This document shows, piece by piece, positions 1 to 8,219 of a stretch of 50,130 nucleotides of DNA; the first letter of the stretch is position 1; each line of letters opens with the position of its first letter. The stretch lies in NCBI GenBank assembly GCA_009695005.1, contig SIBU01000004.1, forward strand, positions 1 to 50,130, written 5' to 3'. A model generated the notes under the pieces. It did no database searches. It was not told the origin of the DNA and was given only the letters and a program-made list of their open reading frames with translations. Origin of the DNA: Candidatus Tayloriibacteriota bacterium. GTDB taxonomy: Bacteria; Patescibacteriota; Minisyncoccia; Phycocordibacterales; SIBU01. A program made the position numbers and the translations under genes.

Positions 1-297
1 TTTGGACTAGTGCAAAATACGGGTTATTTTTTTGCCAACAGATTTTTCTACCCCGGTGATGCCTTTTACAATCCCGGTAAACCTATTGAAATTCTCGCTT
101 TACCAGTTGCTGGTCCGTGGATGAAAATTTCCGAGGCGATTGATTATGCTAAAGAGGTAAAACCAAAGGTTTGTTTCCCCGTTCACGATGGTGGTTTGAA
201 AGGACCAGGTATTGCACATAGAGCACCAAAAACAATTTTGCCTCCCGCAGGTATCGAATTTATCGAGATGGTAGAGGGTTCAACTCAGGAATTTTAA
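1..297 (+). CDS. MBL-fold metallo-hydrolase (UlaG/DUF-like), 5' end truncated by the window edge
   Basis: Frame is open from base 1 (FGLVQNTGY...). FFYPGDA, ALPVAGPW and PVHDG match the C-terminal half of beta-lactamase-fold proteins. Confidence 0.7.
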   Translation, partial: FGLVQNTGYFFANRFFYPGDAFYNPGKPIEILALPVAGPWMKISEAIDYAKEVKPKVCFPVHDGGLKGPGIAHRAPKTILPPAGIEFIEMVEGSTQEF

Positions 298-384
298 TTT
301 TCATAAAAGTTTCATTTCGTTATCTCAGGAACTTTGCTTGAGTAAAATTATTAAAAACAATTGGTCATTTTCAGCTACCAGCTA

Positions 385-404
385 CTCTTTACTTAAGTAA
401 AGTT
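385..404. promoter_or_regulatory. Putative operator 1 (CTCTTTA-CTTAAG-TAAAGTT) of the TrpR/HisR-like regulator
   Basis: Palindromic core CTTTAC-N4-GTAAAG at 387-402, just upstream of the -35 box; two more copies at 438 and 831. Confidence 0.75.
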
Positions 405-411
405 ATCAACA

Positions 412-439
412 TTGACATTTTTCTGCCATTTGTTACACT
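412..439 (+). promoter_or_regulatory. Sigma70 promoter of the TrpR-like gene
   Basis: TTGACA at 412-417, 16-bp spacer, extended -10 TGtTACACT at 431-439. Confidence 0.7.
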
Positions 440-455
440 TTACCCAAGTAAAGAA
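436..455. promoter_or_regulatory. Putative operator 2 (CACTTTA-CCCAAG-TAAAGAA) overlapping -10/+1
   Basis: Core CTTTACCCAAGTAAAG at 438-453 overlaps the -10 box and predicted transcription start. Confidence 0.75.
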
Positions 456-468
456 TGGCAGATTGAAT

Positions 469-780
469 ATGTCAAAAAAACAACGAAAAACAAAGGAGAA
501 ATGGACGATCACCGATAACAATGCTTCGGCGTTAGTTCGGGCGTTTCTCTCTATGAAGAGCAGTGCCGAGATGAAGGCCTTTATGCGCGATTTACTTACA
601 GAGTCTGAAATCATTGAGTTTTCCAAGCGTTTTTACACAGCTCAAGCAATTGCAGAAAATACTCACTATGTCGGTATCGAGAGAGTAACCGGATTGAGTT
701 CCCGTACTATTGCTCGAATAAAGAAATGGTATTGGAACGGTACAGGAGGTTACAAGCTCGCGATTAAACGACGAAAATAG
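469..780 (+). CDS. TrpR-like (YerC/YecD, HisR-like) transcriptional regulator
   Basis: FMRDLLTESEIIEFSKRF...Y..IERVTGLSSRTIARIKKW...GTGGY is the YerC/YecD signature. Start placed at ATG 469, downstream of the promoter. Confidence 0.9.
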   Translation: MSKKQRKTKEKWTITDNNASALVRAFLSMKSSAEMKAFMRDLLTESEIIEFSKRFYTAQAIAENTHYVGIERVTGLSSRTIARIKKWYWNGTGGYKLAIKRRK

Positions 781-824
781 AGTATCCTAAAATCGAAGAG
801 TGTCAGTACCATATTTTTTTACCT

Positions 825-852
825 GCTACTCTTTACCCAAGTAAAGAGTAGC
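825..852. promoter_or_regulatory. Putative operator 3, perfect 28-bp palindrome GCTACTCTTTAC-CCAA-GTAAAGAGTAGC
   Basis: 12-bp arms are exact reverse complements; same core as sites 1 and 2; upstream of the leader and the racemase-like operon. Confidence 0.8.
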
Positions 853-895
853 GGATATCACACCTGTTTATAAAACAATAAATGAAATTTGAATT

Positions 896-967
896 ATGAA
901 AAAAATATTAAAAATAAATAGTAAATCTCATCACAATATTCCCTCTGCCGAGAAAGGGTTGTATTGA
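896..967 (+). CDS. Putative attenuator leader peptide MKKILKINSKSHHNIPSAEKGLY (23 aa)
   Basis: ATG 896 to TGA 967, tandem His codons CAT CAC at 929-934, ends 16 nt before a strong terminator. Too short for the ORF track. Confidence 0.5.
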   Translation: MKKILKINSKSHHNIPSAEKGLY

Positions 968-983
968 ATGTTTTTTTCAATTT

Positions 984-1015
984 AACCCCTTCCCGGTAGC
1001 CGGGAAGGGGTTTTT
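984..1015 (+). terminator. Intrinsic terminator (attenuator-type) upstream of the racemase-like gene
   Basis: Perfect 13-bp stem AACCCCTTCCCGG/CCGGGAAGGGGTT with a TAG loop, followed by a T run. Confidence 0.85.
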
Positions 1016-1122
1016 GTTTGTCCACCTTTGAAGTGACAAATGTGTTCTTTTTGGTGTAAGAAAAACCTTTAGCGACTTGCGCCAAAGATAAAAAGGTCGA
1101 ATCAACAAGAAAATATCAAATT

Positions 1123-1890
1123 ATGCAAAATAGTAAAAAATACTTGGTAACAGCAGCTGGCGGTAACGGTACGATAGTCGAACTCTTGAAAGAGGGTTTG
1201 AGCCGTGCAGAATACGCCAAGCAAGGAAAAATTCTAGGCAGGGATTTTGAACCACAAGAGGCGGAACAAGCAGGCTTTCTTATCCCTATAGAAAACCGGT
1301 TTGAGATGGCCGGTGGGGAGTTTTGTGGTAATGCCGCGCGGTCAACTGCCGTCTTACTCTCTATAATTAAAGGATTGACCGAGGTGGAGTTCACTGTGTC
1401 AGGATTTATCGGCACAGTTAAAGCCACTGTGATAAAAATAGGTGGCTCACGATACACCGCGAGGTGTACGTTTGGTGGTTTGCCGGTTATTAGAAAAGAC
1501 GTTTGTCTTAAAAGTGGCCAGGAGGTGTCGGTAGTCGATCTCGGAGGAATCGTACATGTTGTGTTTGAGGCTCCCTTTCCTGTTGATAAAACTTTTTATC
1601 AGAATGCGCACCTTGCTATGATGCGTGAACTTGAACTAGAAAACCGTGAAGCGGTCGGTGTAGTTTGGTTTAAACGCCAGGACAGGTCTGTATTCCTATA
1701 CCCAGTGGTTTGGGTGAAGGAGGTTGACACCTTTTTCTTCGAGCAATCTTGTGGTTCAGGAACAATCGCTGTTGCTCTTGTAACAGGGGCTAAATCAGTT
1801 GTTCAGCCCACTGGAAAAACAATCGAGGTTGAAATCATGAAAAATGGAGTTGTGTTGGAAAGTGAGATGGAGGTTACATATGAAAGTTAA
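1123..1890 (+). CDS. DapF-fold racemase/epimerase, closest in motif pattern to CntK-type histidine racemases
   Basis: AAGGNGT, EQAGF, FEMAGGEFCGNAAR, LYPVVWVKEVDTFFFEQSCGSGT and VVQPTG; both catalytic Cys present (CGN, SCGSG). Confidence 0.8.
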   Translation: MQNSKKYLVTAAGGNGTIVELLKEGLSRAEYAKQGKILGRDFEPQEAEQAGFLIPIENRFEMAGGEFCGNAARSTAVLLSIIKGLTEVEFTVSGFIGTVKATVIKIGGSRYTARCTFGGLPVIRKDVCLKSGQEVSVVDLGGIVHVVFEAPFPVDKTFYQNAHLAMMRELELENREAVGVVWFKRQDRSVFLYPVVWVKEVDTFFFEQSCGSGTIAVALVTGAKSVVQPTGKTIEVEIMKNGVVLESEMEVTYES

Positions 1891-2482
1891 AAAAGTTTGT
1901 GCCGATCTTCCAAGTCTTCGTTCAGGGTTTGTGTCTGTTTACAAAGAAGCTTTTGGTGGTCCGCCATACTATGAAAAGTATGAGGACACCGAGGTTGTAA
2001 ACGACATATGGTTGCCCCACGTAAAAAAAGGACTTGTGGTGCTGGCTTCTGAGGGTGAAAAAACGATAGGGTTTTCTTGCTCTATGCCTTTTTCGGAATC
2101 TCCGGTAGATGTACAAACGTACCTGCTGGGGAAAAAGGAAAATAACTCACTTTCACTTGATGTGCGAGCGATCTGGTACAACTCTGAGCTTGGTGTTGAA
2201 ACACCATATCGAAAAAAAGGCGTAGGGTATGCGCTTATGAGAGTTCGTTTGGCGGAGATCGTGGCGTCGGGCGGGGAATATTATGTAGCTCGTACGGCGT
2301 CAGTAGGTTCAAACTCTCTTCATCTCTATGAGAGGATCGGATCGGTGAAATTGCCAGGCAGTCATAATGTTTCCATTTCCGACCAAGTGATCGTGAATAA
2401 ATCACAGAGCACTGAACGAATCTATCTCTACGGTAGCTGTAAAGAAGCTATAAGAGAAATTGATGTCATCCTAACGGAATAA
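1880..2482 (+). CDS. GNAT family N-acetyltransferase
   Basis: Acetyl-CoA loop YRKKGVGYAL and C-terminal SLHLYERIG. ATG 1880 follows GGAGG and overlaps the upstream gene end. Confidence 0.8.
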   Translation: MKVKKVCADLPSLRSGFVSVYKEAFGGPPYYEKYEDTEVVNDIWLPHVKKGLVVLASEGEKTIGFSCSMPFSESPVDVQTYLLGKKENNSLSLDVRAIWYNSELGVETPYRKKGVGYALMRVRLAEIVASGGEYYVARTASVGSNSLHLYERIGSVKLPGSHNVSISDQVIVNKSQSTERIYLYGSCKEAIREIDVILTE

Positions 2483-2510
2483 TTTTTCGTCAAGACAGAG
2501 TAGATAATTG

Positions 2511-2538
2511 GGACCGTCTTAATTGGCGGTCCTTTTTT
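2511..2538 (+). terminator. Intrinsic terminator between convergent operons
   Basis: Stem GGACCGTC/GGCGGTCC (one G-U) followed by TTTTTT. Confidence 0.65.
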
Positions 2539-3244
2539 ATATTTTAAAATCTAGATGGGAATAGAGGGAACATTTTTTGTCGTAAAAGCATGCCCATTCT
2601 TTATCCCCGTACGAAAAGTGCCACCACTCTCCGTAAAATGGAGCAAATCCTTCTTTCGTGAGGGCGTCATGGAGTATAAGTCGGTTTTTTGTTTGAATCG
2701 AAGAAACCCCTTTGTCAAAAGTTTTTATTTTTTCGGGTTCTGTAAAGTCGGCAATGCGTGTTCCCATATCTAAAGCCTCTCGTTTTTTATCGACGATTGT
2801 AATATCTACAGCACCGCCCGTAGGATGGCCAGCAACGGAAGGTACAGCGCAAAAGTTGTGTGTGAGCGAGTCAAGTTCTTGAGATGAAAAGTGAGGATGA
2901 AGTTCTGAAAGTTTTGTCCGCTGGGCATCGAAATATTTTTTTTGAATTTCCGGGTACCGATATCCGTATACTACTCGAAGACAAAGTCCCATTTGTTTAA
3001 GCTCGTTGTTTGCGGCTGCAAGCTTCCTTGCAACGGCATCTCGGACAAAAATTTTATCGCCTGTATACGGTAACATGTCCTTTTTTTCGTATTCGGCAAT
3101 AATCGTATCGTCATATGTATTGACAAGAGTCATCGATTCTCCATTTTCCGATGATGGCGTTTCTCGTAGCTCCTCGTAAGTGATTATTCTTTCTTTTTTT
3201 GAATTCATGTCTATGGTTAGCTTGATTTTATCATGATCATTCAT
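2537..3244 (-). CDS. D-Ala-D-Ala dipeptidase (VanX/DdpX, peptidase M15 family)
   Basis: YGYR, HPTGGAVDIT, MGT and EWWHFSYGD zinc-peptidase motifs. Start overlaps the permease stop (ATGAATGA). Confidence 0.85.
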   Translation of the reverse strand: MNDHDKIKLTIDMNSKKERIITYEELRETPSSENGESMTLVNTYDDTIIAEYEKKDMLPYTGDKIFVRDAVARKLAAANNELKQMGLCLRVVYGYRYPEIQKKYFDAQRTKLSELHPHFSSQELDSLTHNFCAVPSVAGHPTGGAVDITIVDKKREALDMGTRIADFTEPEKIKTFDKGVSSIQTKNRLILHDALTKEGFAPFYGEWWHFSYGDKEWACFYDKKCSLYSHLDFKI

Positions 3245-4475
3245 ACCGTAAAGCCTCCATCGGGCTTTTGGAGGCTGCGTGCTTGGCAGGGTAGATACCG
3301 AATACTAGGCCGATAGTGGCGGAGACGAAAAGGCCTAAGATGGCGCCGGTCCAAGGAAAGTTAAACGGCCACGAAATGGCTGCGAAATTAATGAGGATTT
3401 GGCCTATGAGGAAAGCCAATCCTGTACCGATTATTATGCCTACTATGCCGCCTATGCTGGTCAGCACCACAGCTTCAATTAGAAACTGCGTCAGAATATC
3501 TTGATTGGTCGCGCCGATTGATTTGCGTAGGCCGATTTCCTTGGTGCGCTCGGTGACGGATACCAGCATGATATTCATGATGCCGACACCTCCCACGAAG
3601 AGTGAAATAGAGGCCATGGCGACGAGAAATAATGTTAAAGCAGTTGTAATTGTACCTAGTCGATTGGCCAAATCTGCTTGAGTTTGAACGAAAAAATCAT
3701 CTTTGTCCGGGTCGGTAATATCATGCGAGTTGCGCAAAGTGATGCGAACATCTTCAGCGACCTGATCAATGTTTTTATCAGTGTCCGCTTCAACGATCAT
3801 GCGGTGGAAATATTTAATGCCGAAAATATATTCCTGTGCGGTGGTGTAGGGGATGATGGCGATTTCATCAAAGTTGAAAAACGACACTTGACCTTTTTTT
3901 GGAAGAACACCAACAACTCTAAGGTTAAGATTTTTAATTCTAATTTTTTGGCCAACAGCGTCACTTGCGCCAAACAATTCATCTTTAACTTTTGAACCGA
4001 TGACTACTACATTGGCTCTGCTTCTCGTGTCATCTTCTGTAAAAAACTGTCCAGCTTCCGGCACAAGATCAAAAATACTTGAAATAAGCTCTGTGCCTCC
4101 AAAAACTGTTAGTCTGTATGTGTTATTTTCATAAAGACCTGTCTCACCGCCAAAAACAATCGGCATAACTTTGCTAAGATTTGGAACGTTAGATTTTCTC
4201 TGGAGTGCCACCAAGTCTTTTTCTCTAAGTGAGTCACTGAATAACTGAGCAGAATCAGATGGACCTTTTGGTTGGCGTCCCGGAACAACGGCCACAGTTT
4301 TCGAACCTAATCCTTGCACTTGTGAAAGAATAAAATTTTGAGCGCCCGCACCGAGAGACATTACTAAAATAATAGAGGTGATACCGATGACAATTCCAAA
4401 AATTGTAAGAAACGATCGGGTTTTGTTTGTCTTAAGTCCCGTAACGGCGTTTTTAAAATGGTGGGTAAGTTTCAT
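3237..4475 (-). CDS. ABC transporter permease, MacB/FtsX-like
   Basis: NKTRSFLTIFGIVIGI, GGVGIMNIMLVSVTERTKEIGLRKSIGA and SPMEALRYE. Confidence 0.92.
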   Translation of the reverse strand: MKLTHHFKNAVTGLKTNKTRSFLTIFGIVIGITSIILVMSLGAGAQNFILSQVQGLGSKTVAVVPGRQPKGPSDSAQLFSDSLREKDLVALQRKSNVPNLSKVMPIVFGGETGLYENNTYRLTVFGGTELISSIFDLVPEAGQFFTEDDTRSRANVVVIGSKVKDELFGASDAVGQKIRIKNLNLRVVGVLPKKGQVSFFNFDEIAIIPYTTAQEYIFGIKYFHRMIVEADTDKNIDQVAEDVRITLRNSHDITDPDKDDFFVQTQADLANRLGTITTALTLFLVAMASISLFVGGVGIMNIMLVSVTERTKEIGLRKSIGATNQDILTQFLIEAVVLTSIGGIVGIIIGTGLAFLIGQILINFAAISWPFNFPWTGAILGLFVSATIGLVFGIYPAKHAASKSPMEALRYE

Positions 4476-4966
4476 ATGTTTTCTAGAACCACTCTTTCTA
4501 TCCCCGACCTTTCAATTTCCAATTCGATTTGGGTTTTCATGTTAAAAACATCACTTTCGTTTGATTTCCTACTCCTGATTCTTTCTCTCAAGATATTATC
4601 TGGAACAGTAATTTCAATAACCAAATCAGACGGAAAAACAATTGTACCGAAAACCGGGCGACCAGCTTCTATTTTTATTAGTTCATGAGCTTTTCGTGTC
4701 ATAAATTGACCGACTTCCGGTGTCCAGGGCCCACAGACATAATCAATTTCCTGTTGAGTAAGTAGTGGGGCAATCCCTTTTTTATTGTTACCGAAAAGTA
4801 GATCATCCATATCCACCGCTTCAGGTAAATAACTAAGCAATGTTGATTTTCCAACGCAGCTAGCACCAACGACACAAATTCTTTTTTCGATATTGTCTGA
4901 AAAAAGTTTTCTCATTTTATCGATAGTGGGCGGTAGTTGTTCAATTTGTGGGGTCGTATTTTCCAT
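4472..4966 (-). CDS. Small P-loop NTPase/kinase-like protein of unknown specificity
   Basis: Walker A GASCVGKST, DMDD motif and LRERIRSRK lid-like segment. Stop overlaps the permease start (ATGA). Confidence 0.65.
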   Translation of the reverse strand: MENTTPQIEQLPPTIDKMRKLFSDNIEKRICVVGASCVGKSTLLSYLPEAVDMDDLLFGNNKKGIAPLLTQQEIDYVCGPWTPEVGQFMTRKAHELIKIEAGRPVFGTIVFPSDLVIEITVPDNILRERIRSRKSNESDVFNMKTQIELEIERSGIERVVLENI

Positions 4967-4972
4967 GACATT

Positions 4973-5689
4973 TTATTTCACAAATTTTTCAAATGCGTTG
5001 CGTCGATTAGAAACTTTTTCATCAGATTCAATCATACCGTCTCGTAGGTGAATGATTCTTTTGGCGCTTTCGGCTGTATAGGTTTCGTGTGTGATGAGAA
5101 TAACCGTATGCCCCGAATCATTTAATTTTTGAATGATCTCCATCACCGTCTGTCCCGATTTTGAATCAAGATTTCCAGTTGGCTCGTCAGCAAAAATAAT
5201 TGATGGTTTTTGAATTAGAGCTCGGGCGATAGCAACGCGTTGACGTTCACCACCTGAAAGTTCAGATGGCCCGTGCTCTAAACGGTGAGAAAGACCAACT
5301 GATTTGAGTGCTTCTTTGGCCAGTCCGTCCCATTCTCGCTCCGGAACCTTTGAGTAGAGAAGTGGAAGCTTTACGTTTTCCAGCACTGTTGTTCTGGCTA
5401 AAAGATTAAAGGTTTGAAAAATAAATCCAACTTTTTCATTTCGGATTTTTGCCAGTTCTTCGTCGCTGTAAAGTGATACATTTTTACTTTCAAAAAAATA
5501 ATCACCGGAGGTGTGCTTATCGAGAAGCCCGAGAATATGAAGTAAAGTAGATTTTCCAGAGCCTGATGGACCCATGATGGCAACAAAATCACCAGGTTCG
5601 ATTGCAAAGGAGACATCTTTTAGTGCTGTAGTAGCCAAACCATCATCTTCGTAGGTTTTGTTGATATTTTTTATCTCAATGAGAGCCAT
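4973..5689 (-). CDS. ABC transporter ATP-binding protein (MacB/LolD-like)
   Basis: GPSGSGKST, LSGGERQRVAIARAL, ADEPTGNLD and ITH. Confidence 0.95.
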   Translation of the reverse strand: MALIEIKNINKTYEDDGLATTALKDVSFAIEPGDFVAIMGPSGSGKSTLLHILGLLDKHTSGDYFFESKNVSLYSDEELAKIRNEKVGFIFQTFNLLARTTVLENVKLPLLYSKVPEREWDGLAKEALKSVGLSHRLEHGPSELSGGERQRVAIARALIQKPSIIFADEPTGNLDSKSGQTVMEIIQKLNDSGHTVILITHETYTAESAKRIIHLRDGMIESDEKVSNRRNAFEKFVK

Positions 5690-5690
5690 G

Positions 5691-7220
5691 TTATTTTGCT
5701 TGGCCAGATGTGACGATGACGGCCTTGGCGTTTAGGCCTGACAGAATCTCAACTTCTCCGTTTGAACCCCTGATTCCTGTCGTTATCTCGTGTTCAGAAA
5801 TGATTTTTCCTTCCATGACTCCAACAAATTTTTTATTATTTTTTTCATAAACAGATCTCTGTGGCACGGACAGAACGTTCGTTTTGGATGCCGTTACGAT
5901 GGTTGTGTTTGCGGTCATTCCTGAGCGAATTCTTTCGTCAACAACATCAAATTCCAATGTTGTTTTGTAGGTAGAAACGCCGTCAATTGTAGTTTCGGCA
6001 GGATCTATTTTTACGACATGGGCTTGAAATGAAACTCCATTGCCGTAAGCGTCTAGAGTTATCGTTGCCTTGTTACCTATCGTGATTTTTGCTATGTCGA
6101 CTTCTGGAATGAATGCCTCCACTTTAAAATTTCCACTTGCTACGGAAATGATTACTGTGTTTGCTGGGGCGATTTCTCCAACTTTGGCTTCTTGTTTTGT
6201 CACTATTCCTGAAATGGGGGAGACAATATATGTTTTTGCTAATACTGCTTCGGCATTTTTAACATTCGCTAAAGCACTTGCAATGTCAGCAAGAGCTCCT
6301 GCAAGTACTTCGGATGTTGCGCCAACTTTTGTAAGTTGAAGTTCTTTTTCAGCTGCTTCTACTGTAATTTTTTGGGTGGTAATTGTTTGAATCTGGTCTG
6401 TAACACTAGTTATGGCGGTGTTGATGTTTGTTCTTGCGGTATTCAATGCGTCTTTGTTTGTTGTAAGTGTCGCTTCCGAAAGATTGAGCGCCGAGTTTAG
6501 TGCACGGTTTGCCGTTGTTATGAAATCATTAATCGAAAGGAGGTATTTTTTTGTTTGGATTAAGGATTCTTCATTTCCGGCGGTGGTTAGGGAAGAGTTT
6601 TGTGATAATTTTTTTAAATTATTTAGTGTTGTTTCAGCATCTCTACGGCCATTTTGGGAATCTACAACGGTCTGTTGATCGCTCGAATAGAAGGAAATTT
6701 GTGGGTTTGCGGTGGCAGCGTTTCCAAAAAGAGTGTCTGCCTGTCTCCTGACGGCGTTATCAGCTTTGTTGAATGCATCTAAAACTATGTTTGGCACCGC
6801 AATATAAGCAGTGGCTAGATCCGATTTAGCTTTTGCAAGTTCAGTTTCCTTTAAGCTTATCTCTTCTGGACGTCCACCAGCCCTGAGGTCGTTGTAGTGT
6901 GCCTTCTTTGAATCATGTTTTGCTTTCGCATCTTCTACGGCAGAAGCCTCAACTCCGTTATCTAGAATTACTAAAACATCGCTTTCATTTATTTTGTCCC
7001 CGACTTCAGATTTGATTTTTCTGACACGACCAGCTCTTTCAAATCCAAGTTCAACCGCGGCCTTGTCTTTGACTGTGCCAGAAACAGCCACCTCTTGTGA
7101 AAGGTCACCAAGCTTCACAATCGCAGTTGTGTATTTTTGACCCCCATTATTTGACTTGTAATAAATCAATACGGCAATAATGACAACAAAACCAAGAATC
7201 GTATAAATGATTTTTTTCAT
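5691..7220 (-). CDS. Membrane fusion/periplasmic adaptor protein (MacA/HlyD-like) with long coiled coil
   Basis: N-terminal TM, GRVRKIKSEVGDKI and SPISGIV lipoyl-like halves, long helical hairpin, RIRSGMTA. Confidence 0.88.
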   Translation of the reverse strand: MKKIIYTILGFVVIIAVLIYYKSNNGGQKYTTAIVKLGDLSQEVAVSGTVKDKAAVELGFERAGRVRKIKSEVGDKINESDVLVILDNGVEASAVEDAKAKHDSKKAHYNDLRAGGRPEEISLKETELAKAKSDLATAYIAVPNIVLDAFNKADNAVRRQADTLFGNAATANPQISFYSSDQQTVVDSQNGRRDAETTLNNLKKLSQNSSLTTAGNEESLIQTKKYLLSINDFITTANRALNSALNLSEATLTTNKDALNTARTNINTAITSVTDQIQTITTQKITVEAAEKELQLTKVGATSEVLAGALADIASALANVKNAEAVLAKTYIVSPISGIVTKQEAKVGEIAPANTVIISVASGNFKVEAFIPEVDIAKITIGNKATITLDAYGNGVSFQAHVVKIDPAETTIDGVSTYKTTLEFDVVDERIRSGMTANTTIVTASKTNVLSVPQRSVYEKNNKKFVGVMEGKIISEHEITTGIRGSNGEVEILSGLNAKAVIVTSGQAK

Positions 7221-7310
7221 AATGAGTTAATTTAAGCGTTATTTTTCGTACTATATCACATAAATTAGCACCCGACTAACTTAAATTCTTTATGATATAC
7301 TCAAATTGAA

Positions 7311-8219
7311 ATGATGATGGATAAGTCTGCAATAGACAAAAAAAAGCTTTTAAATGGCCATATATTAGATGGTAAGGTTCTTCGTGACCTCGGTGTTCAG
7401 AGACTTAAGCTGGCTTTTTCTAAATTTGTTGGAAAGCCGACTCTGGCAGTTATTCAGGTTGGTGACTTGGCTGAGTCTAGTGCTTACATTGAACAAAAAA
7501 GAAAATTTGCCGAAAAAATTGGTGCCGGCTTTATACATGAAAAATTTTCGGCAGATGTTTCTGAAGAAGATTTGTCTAGTGCGATAAATAGGTTAAACAG
7601 TAATTCAAAAATTAACGGTATTATTGTTCAGCTGCCTATCCCTGTTGCTTTAAATAAGAGGAAAATTATCGATACTATTCTTCCAAAGAAAGATGTCGAT
7701 GGTTTGACGACAACAAATAAGAAACTTTTTGAGACGGAAAATTCTAGTGCGATTGTGCCTGCAACTGCGCGAGGAGTTCTTTCTCTTCTTGAGGGTTATG
7801 GAATTGATGTAAATAAAAAGAAGGTTACGGTGGTAGGTAGGAGTGAATTGGTTGGAGGACCGATCGCTACACTTTTTGCTCATAAGGGATCTTTGGTGAC
7901 CGTTTGTCATCGTGGAACACCAGATATGACGACTAAATGCAGAAATGCGGATATTCTTATAGTTGCCACAGGTGTCCCTCGTCTTGTTGATAGGAATTAT
8001 GTAACTGAGAATCAGGTCGTTGTTGATGTCGGAATAAGTTCGGTCCTGGGAGATAAATTGGAGGAGGAAATCCCTCGTAAAGTTTTGGTAGGGGATGTAG
8101 ATTTTAATGATGTTAAGGATATTGTTAGTGCTATTTCACCTGTTCCTGGAGGAGTAGGGCCCATGACCGTACTTTCTTTGTTTGAAAATTTGTTTGACGC
8201 TTCAAAAAATGTAATTTAA
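7311..8219 (+). CDS. folD: Bifunctional methylenetetrahydrofolate dehydrogenase/cyclohydrolase
   Basis: GIIVQLP, KDVDG, VVGRSELVG, VVDVG and SPVPGGVGPMTV. Confidence 0.95.
   Translation: MMMDKSAIDKKKLLNGHILDGKVLRDLGVQRLKLAFSKFVGKPTLAVIQVGDLAESSAYIEQKRKFAEKIGAGFIHEKFSADVSEEDLSSAINRLNSNSKINGIIVQLPIPVALNKRKIIDTILPKKDVDGLTTTNKKLFETENSSAIVPATARGVLSLLEGYGIDVNKKKVTVVGRSELVGGPIATLFAHKGSLVTVCHRGTPDMTTKCRNADILIVATGVPRLVDRNYVTENQVVVDVGISSVLGDKLEEEIPRKVLVGDVDFNDVKDIVSAISPVPGGVGPMTVLSLFENLFDASKNVI

Follow-up and report, generated by a model that had tools for sequence, protein, structure and literature searches.

A putative histidine racemase coupled to an acyltransferase and a VanX-like peptidase in an exchangeable cassette of a Patescibacteria-type genome

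The DNA analyzed here (hereafter, the window) is a stretch of 50,130 nucleotides from Candidatus Tayloriibacteriota bacterium (GenBank assembly GCA_009695005.1, contig SIBU01000004.1) that represents one whole contig (C11) of a Patescibacteria-type genome of 794 kb in 24 contigs. The subject of this work is a racemase of the CntK/HisR (histidine racemase) family that is encoded in the window together with an N-acyltransferase of the GNAT superfamily and, in the opposite orientation, a VanX-like zinc peptidase of the M15 family. The main features of this locus are:

858-3217: exchangeable cassette that includes a putative leader, the racemase, the GNAT and the M15 peptidase; no homology to congeners inside
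1123-1890, forward strand: cofactor-independent racemase of the CntK/HisR family, 255 amino acids (aa), stop codon at 1888-1890
1880-2482, forward strand: GNAT N-acyltransferase, translationally coupled, ATG at 1880, 11-nucleotide (nt) overlap with the racemase gene
2510-2533: hairpin resembling a terminator, where the GNAT and M15 genes converge
2537-3244, reverse strand: VanX-like zinc peptidase (Peptidase_M15), with Met13 (3208) as a possible other start

Two other sequencing runs yielded contigs that match positions 1-5000 and 1-3329 of the window at 100% identity and span the junctions of the cassette, so the locus is not an assembly artefact.

The racemase contains the motifs AAGGNGT (residues 12-17), AEQAGF (47-52), EMAGGEFCGNA (61-71), PVVWVKEVDTFFFEQSCGSGT (194-214) and QPTG (228-231), that is, every motif from which the original prediction, made from the letters of this DNA, had derived a two-cysteine enzyme of the DapF fold at 1123-1890. 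Among the NCBIfam profiles, the protein scores 66.3 bits with the Fusobacterium HisR model, 48.2 bits with CntK and 13.9 bits with DapF (TIGR00652, cut-off 114.65 bits). The closest sequences in the Protein Data Bank (PDB) are HisR (9CR1/9CR6, 1e-10) followed by CntK (5e-7), and the precomputed Pfam family is PF26317 (CntK_N). A maximum likelihood tree was constructed from 84 family members, three bona fide DapF proteins and those parts of HisR and CntK that the PDB alignments contain; in this tree, HisR and CntK nest within the family, DapF is set apart on a long branch with 100% support, and the window racemase belongs to a clade with 95% support that is dominated by Saccharibacteria. The AlphaFold2 (AF2) model of the racemase (pLDDT 97) is most similar, in a Foldseek search, to HisR 9CR1 (TM-score 0.80, E-value 3e-20), then to CntK 6JIW (0.72) and to DapF (0.62-0.70). 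The catalytic cysteines, C68 and C210, correspond to C67 and C209 of HisR and are both at least 90% conserved among 40 relatives. The residues N15, E48, E66, G69, N70, E207 and S212 correspond to N18, E49, E65, G68, N69, E206 and S211 of HisR, which were proposed to bind histidine in the papers on HisR and CntK, and show little or no variation among 40 diverse relatives; G211 replaces A210 of HisR, and CntK likewise has a glycine in this position.

Judged by profile scores, tree, predicted fold and active-site residues, the protein is of the HisR/CntK type and not DapF, as originally predicted, and the phylogeny that had been proposed as a check of that prediction places it on the same side. 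The protein is probably a two-cysteine, cofactor-independent histidine racemase that interconverts L- and D-histidine. The characterized enzyme closest to it by sequence, profile and structure is HisR (FN1732) of Fusobacterium nucleatum, a cofactor-independent histidine racemase (PDB 9CR1/9CR6; PMC11602996) that is reported to be highly specific for histidine. The identity to this enzyme is, however, only about 22-24%, the two fall in different clades of the family tree, and, because it falls well short of the equivalog cut-offs of 400 and 300 bits, the window racemase represents a new clade of the family, being orthologous to neither HisR nor CntK.

The staphylopine and lysine/diaminopimelate context was said in the original prediction to be missing, and this held up: no gene scoring as DapF and no homologue of cntM (Staph_opine_DH) was found in the 794-kb genome (cntL was not searched for separately), and among the open reading frames (ORFs) examined around the locus there are no cntL, cntM or cnt transporter genes. 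DapF is present in only three of the 18 genomes carrying the racemase (carrier genomes), and no genome with all three enzymes contains cntM. A DapF identity was thus rejected (profile score, distant outgroup in the tree, lower Foldseek TM-scores and the lack of DapF in the genome), as was a staphylopine-type pathway, given the lack of cntM in this genome and in every genome with the triad. As a separate observation, Clostridium sp. UBA2485 encompasses an opine-metallophore cluster with cntM- and cntL-like genes and ABC transporters (L117, contig C4 of G016, 4749-6850) with no racemase beside it, and on another contig (L023) a stand-alone racemase that falls within the Saccharibacteria clade of the family tree.

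The overlap between the racemase and GNAT genes, also noted in the original prediction, amounts to 11 nt with the start at ATG 1880, which is preceded by GGAGG at 1868-1872, 7 nt upstream, and is favored by homologues and by independent gene calls (200 aa); the longest ORF begins at 1844 and would extend the overlap to 47 nt. The GNAT scores 23.6 bits with Pfam Acetyltransf_1 (cut-off 20.7), retains a conserved acyl-CoA motif (R111-KKGVG) and is modeled by AF2 with a pLDDT of 95 as a GNAT fold with hundreds of structural matches among GNATs. The Foldseek neighbors include N-alpha-acetyltransferases and acetyltransferases of amino acid analogues; NCBIfam, the PDB and Foldseek yielded generic GNAT matches and named no subfamily. 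The residues conserved throughout the GNAT family of the module, Y21, F25, P29, Y30, E32, Y100, R138, T139, Q162 and R180, are compatible with an amino acid acceptor. By eye, neither the GNAT nor the M15 protein has a signal-like N-terminal segment, and both are therefore taken to be cytoplasmic.

The M15 protein is recognized by Pfam PF01427 with 64 bits (cut-off 27), and the profile of its family matches VanX (1R44) with an E-value of 2e-14. R96, H140, D147, D166, E206 and H209 correspond to VanX R71, H116, D123, D142, E181 and H184; the zinc ligands H140, D147 and H209 as well as the catalytic glutamate E206 and the transition-state arginine R96 are invariant in 33 M15 proteins of the module, and D166 is conserved across the module M15 family. 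We take VanX D142, the counterpart of D166, to hold the free N-terminal ammonium of the substrate. VanX S114 and S115 are replaced by A138 and G139, and the family has an invariant motif of its own, HFSYGDxEW. The protein falls short of the VanX/DdpX equivalog level (NF033115, 43.9 vs 320 bits; NF007557, 59 vs 176 bits).

The M15 gene is the last of a series on the reverse strand (2537-7220) that otherwise encodes a MacA-like adaptor, an ABC ATPase, a 164-aa P-loop protein and a MacB permease. With the Met1 start, the M15 gene overlaps the stop codon of macB by 8 nt; the Met13 start (3208), which better fits the lengths of the homologues, leaves a gap of 29 nt. Congeners have no M15 gene in this position.

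The window and 85 related loci (86 altogether) were domain-mapped by iterated profile searches of six-frame ORFs. The GNAT was identified in 37 of the 86 loci and M15 in 42, and nearly every relative with at least 40% identity has both; the complete trio is found in about 40 loci. In public contigs, the GNAT gene follows the racemase gene, and a gene for a VanX-like Peptidase_M15 faces them; the racemase-GNAT pair and M15 form separate, convergent transcription units in the window and in the Saccharibacteria loci. The loci that contain racemase-GNAT fusions are of the Woese-, Levy-, Gottesman-, Roizman- and Peribacteria-type. When 1.8 billion cluster representatives were searched, 19 among the best 150 matches exceeded 430 aa, and all 20 multi-domain matches that were scanned proved to be fusions, 12 of racemase with GNAT and eight of racemase with M15 (in both orders), with no other partner. 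Genome-wide searches revealed seven genomes that encode the racemase and M15 and have no GNAT of the module subfamily anywhere, and one genome (G485) with the racemase and GNAT in which M15 was not found; of the 28 genomes with the racemase alone, 25 lack M15.

Thus, the racemase is the hub to which M15 and GNAT each couple independently, and the module is a triad in which M15 rather than GNAT is the more constant partner, because seven genomes hold the racemase and M15 without the subfamily GNAT. Of the racemase-GNAT pairing originally predicted, the dedicated coupling of the GNAT stands, and the two-gene module turns out to be incomplete, with the convergent M15 gene as the third partner. 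The pair is not confined to the window, as it recurs widely, and the order yerC-racemase-GNAT (yerC being the regulator gene discussed below) is repeated in several candidate phyla; the leader that had been included in the predicted order has no counterpart in the related loci. No exporter or receptor is conserved with the module in the mapped loci. Deacylases of the AstE/AspA family (succinylglutamate desuccinylase/aspartoacylase) were observed in six loci, namely L006 (3152-3898), L019-L022 and L028 (717-1538), in the last case directly upstream of the racemase gene. Their presence hints at N-acyl-amino-acid chemistry.

The combination differs from each of the known systems that it resembles. 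No staphylopine genes are found near HisR (FN1732), as in the window; HisR, however, stands alone beside folate (pab) genes, whereas the window enzyme is coupled to GNAT and M15 under a HisR/YerC regulator. CntK of Staphylococcus aureus (PDB 6JIS/6JIW/6L4L) shares with the window racemase the family (CntK_N), the fold and the catalytic residues. CntK is the first enzyme of the staphylopine pathway, which consumes D-histidine, and it is encoded along with cntL, cntM and the cnt transporters, whereas the partners here are a GNAT and a VanX-like peptidase. In VanC-type clusters (VanT and VanXY_C), as in the module, the gene for a racemase is linked to that for a zinc D,D-peptidase of the VanX family; VanT, however, is a pyridoxal phosphate (PLP)-dependent serine racemase, and Van clusters include a D-Ala-D-X ligase, with no GNAT and no link to histidine genes. 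A D-to-L inversion pathway of Geobacillus kaustophilus, reportedly described by Sakai et al. in 2006, comprises a GNAT succinyltransferase, an N-succinylamino-acid racemase and an L-desuccinylase. The logic of the trio is the same, with an acyl-CoA N-acyltransferase, a racemase and an amidohydrolase acting on the stereochemistry of one amino acid; however, the Geobacillus racemase is an enolase-superfamily enzyme that uses the N-acylated amino acid as its substrate, and the hydrolase is specific for the L-form, whereas the module would combine a DapF-fold enzyme for free amino acids with a hydrolase of a D-specific family. Yeast Hpa3 is a D-amino-acid N-acetyltransferase, with which the module would have in common the neutralization of D-amino acids by N-acetylation.

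The genomic surroundings of the module are rich in histidine-related genes. Within the fetched flanks, hisS was found in 30 loci, hisG in 11, histidine ammonia-lyase (HAL) in seven and yerC in 11; yerC adjoins the racemase operon in ten loci besides the window, and in four loci hisE lies between hisG and the racemase. The hisS gene is divergent and upstream in Saccharibacteria and upstream in Clostridia; in Microgenomates-type loci (Levy-, Gottesman- and related) the order YerC, racemase-GNAT, M15, HisS is co-directional. Because the arrangements differ between lineages, the association of hisS with the module is not simply inherited synteny. Histidinol dehydrogenase (HisD) is missing in 17 of the 18 carrier genomes and present in all 14 control genomes, and the 17 carriers are accordingly read as unable to make histidine; in the genome of the window itself no histidine biosynthesis genes were found.

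Many carriers, for example, G001, G003, G004, G007, G008, G009 and G015, encode two or three full-length histidyl-tRNA synthetases (HisRS) of three distinct clades, and most of the genomes with multiple HisRS are smaller than 1.3 Mb. Duplicate aminoacyl-tRNA synthetase genes are unusual in such reduced genomes. In the HisRS tree, the module-linked copies form a single clade, and in four Microgenomates-type genomes (G011-G014) the linked gene is the only HisRS. The genome of the window has one HisRS, of another clade, on contig C21 and unlinked to the module.

Two further observations concern Saccharibacteria. In members of this group that lack histidinol dehydrogenase, hisG, either in the long form with hisE or in a short form, adjoins the racemase (L013, L014, L016 and L018, at about 7000-8000, as well as L001, L003 and L009); these bacteria retain the initial step, or the initial two, of histidine biosynthesis, and hisD was not detected. 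The 5' regions of the divergent hisS genes (L001, 5732-5830; L003, L005, L009, L012 and L017) share a conserved leader that consists, in this order, of a TATAAT-like box, a GC-rich hairpin flanked by ATGG...CCAT, the sequence AGCAGATTGAGAGG and the start codon. This leader matches no Rfam family and may be a hisS-specific regulatory RNA.

Alanine racemase is recognizable in nine of the 18 carrier genomes; the idea that the module replaces this enzyme was rejected since the genome of the window itself carries alr (contig C22). D-aminoacyl-tRNA deacylase (Dtd) was not found in any of the tested genomes of the candidate phyla radiation (CPR), and its absence was dropped as a discriminator because congeners without the module lack it as well.

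Comparison with congeners shows that the three enzyme genes reside in an exchangeable slot. Homology at the DNA level covers positions 1-857 of the window (an MBL-fold gene, yerC and the third of three operator boxes) and resumes at 3218-3239, with none in between; downstream of the cassette, it extends over the macB permease gene and the rest of the MacAB-type operon. Although the identity over 1-857 is only about 68%, a perfect 28-bp palindrome that is the last conserved element before the cassette is 100% conserved in the congener G418. The end of contig C24 (25393-25541) matches positions 1-149 of the window exactly, and the two contigs probably join there, completing the MBL-fold gene.

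In three congeners, G418, G420 and G423, the slot contains, instead of the cassette, a SLOG (LDcluster4) gene and a gene for a protein of 250-282 aa with a weak phosphoribosyltransferase match (L110, on contig C1 of G418, 2043-3652; L114, 1755-3301; L115, 1483-3008). G418 also keeps the three boxes, and the YerC of this slot would control a different cargo in the sister species. The racemase family is represented in six of the 401 genomes sampled across the phylum, in none of six congeners and in none of 54 genomes of the same order. The block 858-3217, with the leader, racemase, GNAT and M15, is thus one exchangeable unit and, as such, provides independent evidence that the three enzymes belong together. 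The absence of the cassette from every sampled congener and same-order genome makes acquisition the more parsimonious explanation, and the cassette is probably a recent acquisition rather than a lineage trait; the compositional sign of transfer was discounted as weak (GC content of 0.42 in the cassette vs 0.40 in the genome). The slot can be viewed as a natural experiment in which the cassette replaced another cargo at a conserved, operator-guarded site.

The features of the region between the MBL-fold gene and the racemase are:

387-402: HisR-type operator box 1, CTTTACTTAAGTAAAG, immediately 5' of the yerC promoter
412-439, forward strand: sigma-70-like yerC promoter, TTGACA-16-TACACT with TG, 10 of 12 consensus matches
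438-453: HisR-type operator box 2, cACTTTACCCAAGTAAAGaa
469-780, forward strand: yerC/hisR-like regulator of the TrpR family, 103 aa from ATG 469, in agreement with independent gene calls
825-852: perfect 28-bp palindrome, GCTACTCTTTACCCAAGTAAAGAGTAGC, with box 3 (831-846) at its center
896-967, forward strand: 23-codon ORF, MKKILKINSKSHHNIPSAEKGLY, doubtful putative leader
984-1012, forward strand: hairpin resembling an intrinsic terminator, 13 bp with 9 GC and a T tract, between box 3 and the racemase gene

The regulator scores 39 bits with Pfam Trp_repressor and 48.3 bits with the YerC/YecD model TIGR02531 (cut-off 42.2). Exact copies of the core CTTTAC-N4-GTAAAG start at 387, 438 and 831, none being expected from 100 shuffles, and these are the only copies in the 794-kb genome. 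All three boxes fit the HisR operator consensus cacTTTAnnnnnnTAAAgtg (cacTTTA-N6-TAAAgtg; PMC9413887), which has been validated in vitro for HisR of Ruminococcus gnavus, a repressor whose DNA binding is stimulated by histidine (PMC9413887). The HisR (YerC) regulons of Firmicutes share with the window a YerC of the TrpR family, a 20-bp palindromic operator and autoregulatory sites; the known ones, however, consist of histidine biosynthesis and transport genes (PMC9413887), whereas the racemase cassette is the only candidate target in the window besides yerC. Box 2 overlaps the -10 element of the yerC promoter and, together with box 1, brackets this promoter, a geometry of autorepression. Similar sites (ACTTTA-N6-TAAAGT) precede the yerC-racemase operons in L027, L052 and L060. 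Because the congener slot holds SLOG and phosphoribosyltransferase-like genes, we only infer histidine specificity for the window YerC.

Three converging histidine cues had been proposed for this locus, of which the HisR-like boxes, by their match to the consensus, and the enzyme resembling histidine racemases are retained. The third, a His-His leader (896-967, with two histidine codons), is not supported and is not counted: the ORF has no homologue in the 85 related loci or elsewhere in the genome, no comparable histidine-rich upstream ORF was found in loci L001-L036, and neither a T-box nor a histidine leader was found beside the module in 20 related loci. No Rfam family reaches the gathering score in the window, and only chance-level matches were obtained in 300-1200; region 860-1125 folds with a z-score of -5.2. 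The hairpin at 984-1012 is a candidate terminator of yerC or attenuator. A second hairpin, ACCUUUAGCGACUUGCGCCAAAGAU (forward strand, 1065-1089), lies between it and the racemase start and is terminator-like on the reverse strand. In G418, a palindrome of 28-32 bp, CCGCTACTCTTTAC(CCAA/TTGG)GTAAAGAGTAGCGG, is found at four or five further loci (positions recorded for it: L110, 1533, 1584 and 1997; L111, 2528; L112, 797; L113, 2303 and 3643) and could represent either a larger YerC regulon or a REP-like hairpin element.

Taken together, the evidence leads us to a proposal that we regard as evenly balanced, namely, that the block 858-3217 is a module for histidine supply and D-histidine management. 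The M15 peptidase would hydrolyze an amide with a C-terminal D-histidine, either an X-D-His dipeptide or N-acyl-D-His, freeing D-histidine that the racemase would turn into L-histidine for HisRS; the handover from peptidase to racemase would be central to the module. Because VanX-family enzymes cleave before a C-terminal D-residue, M15 probably liberates D-histidine, and because the coupling of a hydrolase to a racemase makes sense only in this way, its product would be the substrate of the racemase. The GNAT, where it is fused after the racemase, most plausibly acylates the unusual enantiomer, D-histidine; it would cap the alpha-amine using acyl-CoA, serving as an overflow or neutralizing sink or else forming N-acyl-D-His that M15 reopens. 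By analogy with the characterized HisR, the YerC/HisR-type repressor would derepress the cassette under histidine scarcity. A response to histidine shortage is suggested by the HisR-type control, the co-transcription with the only hisS in some lineages and the histidine auxotrophy of the carriers; the nearly universal auxotrophy of the carriers, together with the lack of Dtd in the CPR genomes tested, underlies the reading of the module as one of supply and D-histidine management. The assignment of the racemase is the firmest part of this model, and the role of the GNAT is the weakest. Whereas family membership, the conserved active sites, the coupling and fusion of the genes, their linkage to histidine genes, the operator match and the limits of the cassette are observed directly, what we infer here includes the identity of the substrate, the enantiomer acylated by the GNAT, the substrate of M15, and the sign and ligand of the regulation.

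Several observations weigh against this proposal. The racemase is far under the NCBIfam equivalog cut-offs (66 vs 400 bits for NF052224 and 48 vs 300 bits for NF033599). The M15 gene of the window may be transcribed with the operon of the MacAB-type exporter rather than with the racemase. No sigma-70-like promoter was found beside box 3, and the strong terminator-like hairpin at 984-1012 separates this box from the racemase gene. The slot cargo of the three congeners is unrelated to the cassette, and the dispersed palindromes of G418 are found partly where two genes converge and partly at promoter sites, such as the one ahead of a DoxX gene; the box may therefore not be purely a histidine operator. 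In some loci (L020), HAL, a catabolic enzyme, is found within the module operon, which fits histidine disposal better than rescue from starvation. The GNAT would be needless under pure salvage, and acetylation would waste scarce histidine, yet racemase-GNAT is the commonest fusion. Finally, we know of no natural source of peptides terminating in D-histidine. Making, detoxifying and salvaging D-histidine are all compatible with the sequence.

The main alternative, which we consider unlikely, runs in the biosynthetic direction: L-histidine would be converted to D-histidine and then to N-acyl-D-His as a deliberate product that M15 reopens and that would store histidine in inert form or act as a compatible solute, chelator or signal. 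The predominance of racemase-GNAT among the fusions (12 of 20) suggests consecutive steps, with acylation pulling racemization, and the three observed states, racemase with GNAT only (G485), racemase with M15 only (seven genomes) and the triad, would separate a producer (the racemase-GNAT genome) from consumers (the racemase-M15 genomes). The separation of racemase-GNAT and M15 into convergent units, here and in Saccharibacteria, and the AstE/AspA-type N-acyl-amino-acid deacylases in six loci also fit this scheme. However, HisR-type control predicts expression at histidine scarcity, an odd time to divert histidine; D166 of M15, by the role we assume for VanX D142, favors a dipeptide over an N-acetyl substrate; and no exporter or receptor is conserved with the module. 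This alternative explains the fusions and the three states better, and the regulation worse, than the supply and management model. The metal chelator, signal and cell-wall modulator functions put forward in the original prediction received no specific support.

A further reading, which we consider quite unlikely, is that D-histidine serves as a physiological currency among ultra-small histidine auxotrophs, N-acyl-D-His or X-D-His being made by the carriers of racemase-GNAT and reopened by those of racemase-M15. Such a currency would be an inert histidine store or shared good or, alternatively, an antimetabolite directed at HisRS that makes the host derepress histidine synthesis, in which case the module-linked second HisRS would be the protected copy of the producer. 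The three states of the module, the exclusive fusions and the duplicated HisRS genes are compatible with this scheme.

It is improbable that the module is a generic device for recycling D-amino acids or peptidoglycan fragments, in which M15 would split D-Ala-D-Ala or similar dipeptides derived from the wall, the racemase would convert D- to L-amino acids, not specifically histidine, and the GNAT would detoxify the leftovers. M15 does keep every catalytic residue of VanX, half of the carrier genomes (nine of 18) have no recognizable alanine racemase, and Dtd is missing from all CPR genomes tested; but the genome of the window has an alanine racemase (C22), the residues proposed to bind imidazole in HisR/CntK, three glutamates among them, are retained in the window racemase, HisR is reported to be highly specific for histidine, and the neighbors of the module are hisS, hisG, hisE, HAL and HisR/YerC rather than mur, ddl or alr.

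Even less probable is a quality control system at the entry to translation, whereby the trio would act on activated histidine or on mimics of histidyl-adenylate, for instance through deacylation or acetylation of D-His-tRNA or of an antimetabolite directed at aminoacyl-tRNA synthetases, with the module-linked second HisRS as a resistant or specialized copy. The status of hisS as the commonest neighbor, the two or three HisRS genes in many small carriers with the linked copies in a clade of their own, the absence of Dtd, and the N-alpha-acetyltransferases and amino-acid-analogue acetyltransferases among the Foldseek neighbors of the GNAT all speak for it. Against it, the substrates of DapF-fold racemases are free amino acids, G011-G014 have the linked HisRS as their sole copy and hence as an ordinary housekeeping enzyme, the genome of the window keeps the triad with a single unlinked HisRS of another clade, and Dtd is equally absent from congeners without the module.

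There is next to no chance that the racemase is a diaminopimelate epimerase, the annotation given to homologues in several public sources (to many of them by JGI), or a CntK feeding a staphylopine-like metallophore pathway, since, for all the DapF fold, the two-cysteine motifs and the kinship with CntK, the DapF profile yields 13.9 bits against a cut-off of 114.65, true DapF proteins are a distant outgroup, DapF is missing from the genome of the window and found in only three of 18 carriers, and cntM was found neither in this genome nor in any triad genome.

To our knowledge, only two cofactor-independent histidine racemases have been characterized, one supplying a metallophore pathway and the other being F. 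nucleatum HisR, for which no role is known. We found no description of the triad, or of a histidine racemase in Patescibacteria, in the searchable literature, and a paper on the genetics of Saccharibacteria (PMC10633639) mentions none of the module genes. The locus described here represents a much larger, seemingly undescribed branch of the histidine racemase family in which gene order, translational coupling and recurrent fusion tie the racemase to both an acetyltransferase and a D-specific peptidase. The window itself adds the cassette swap, the genome-unique operators and the recognition of M15 as a more constant partner than the GNAT. If confirmed, these findings would give D-histidine a defined metabolic context, in the form of a simple three-enzyme system open to testing, and would show how an essential amino acid is secured or managed in reduced bacteria that depend on a host.

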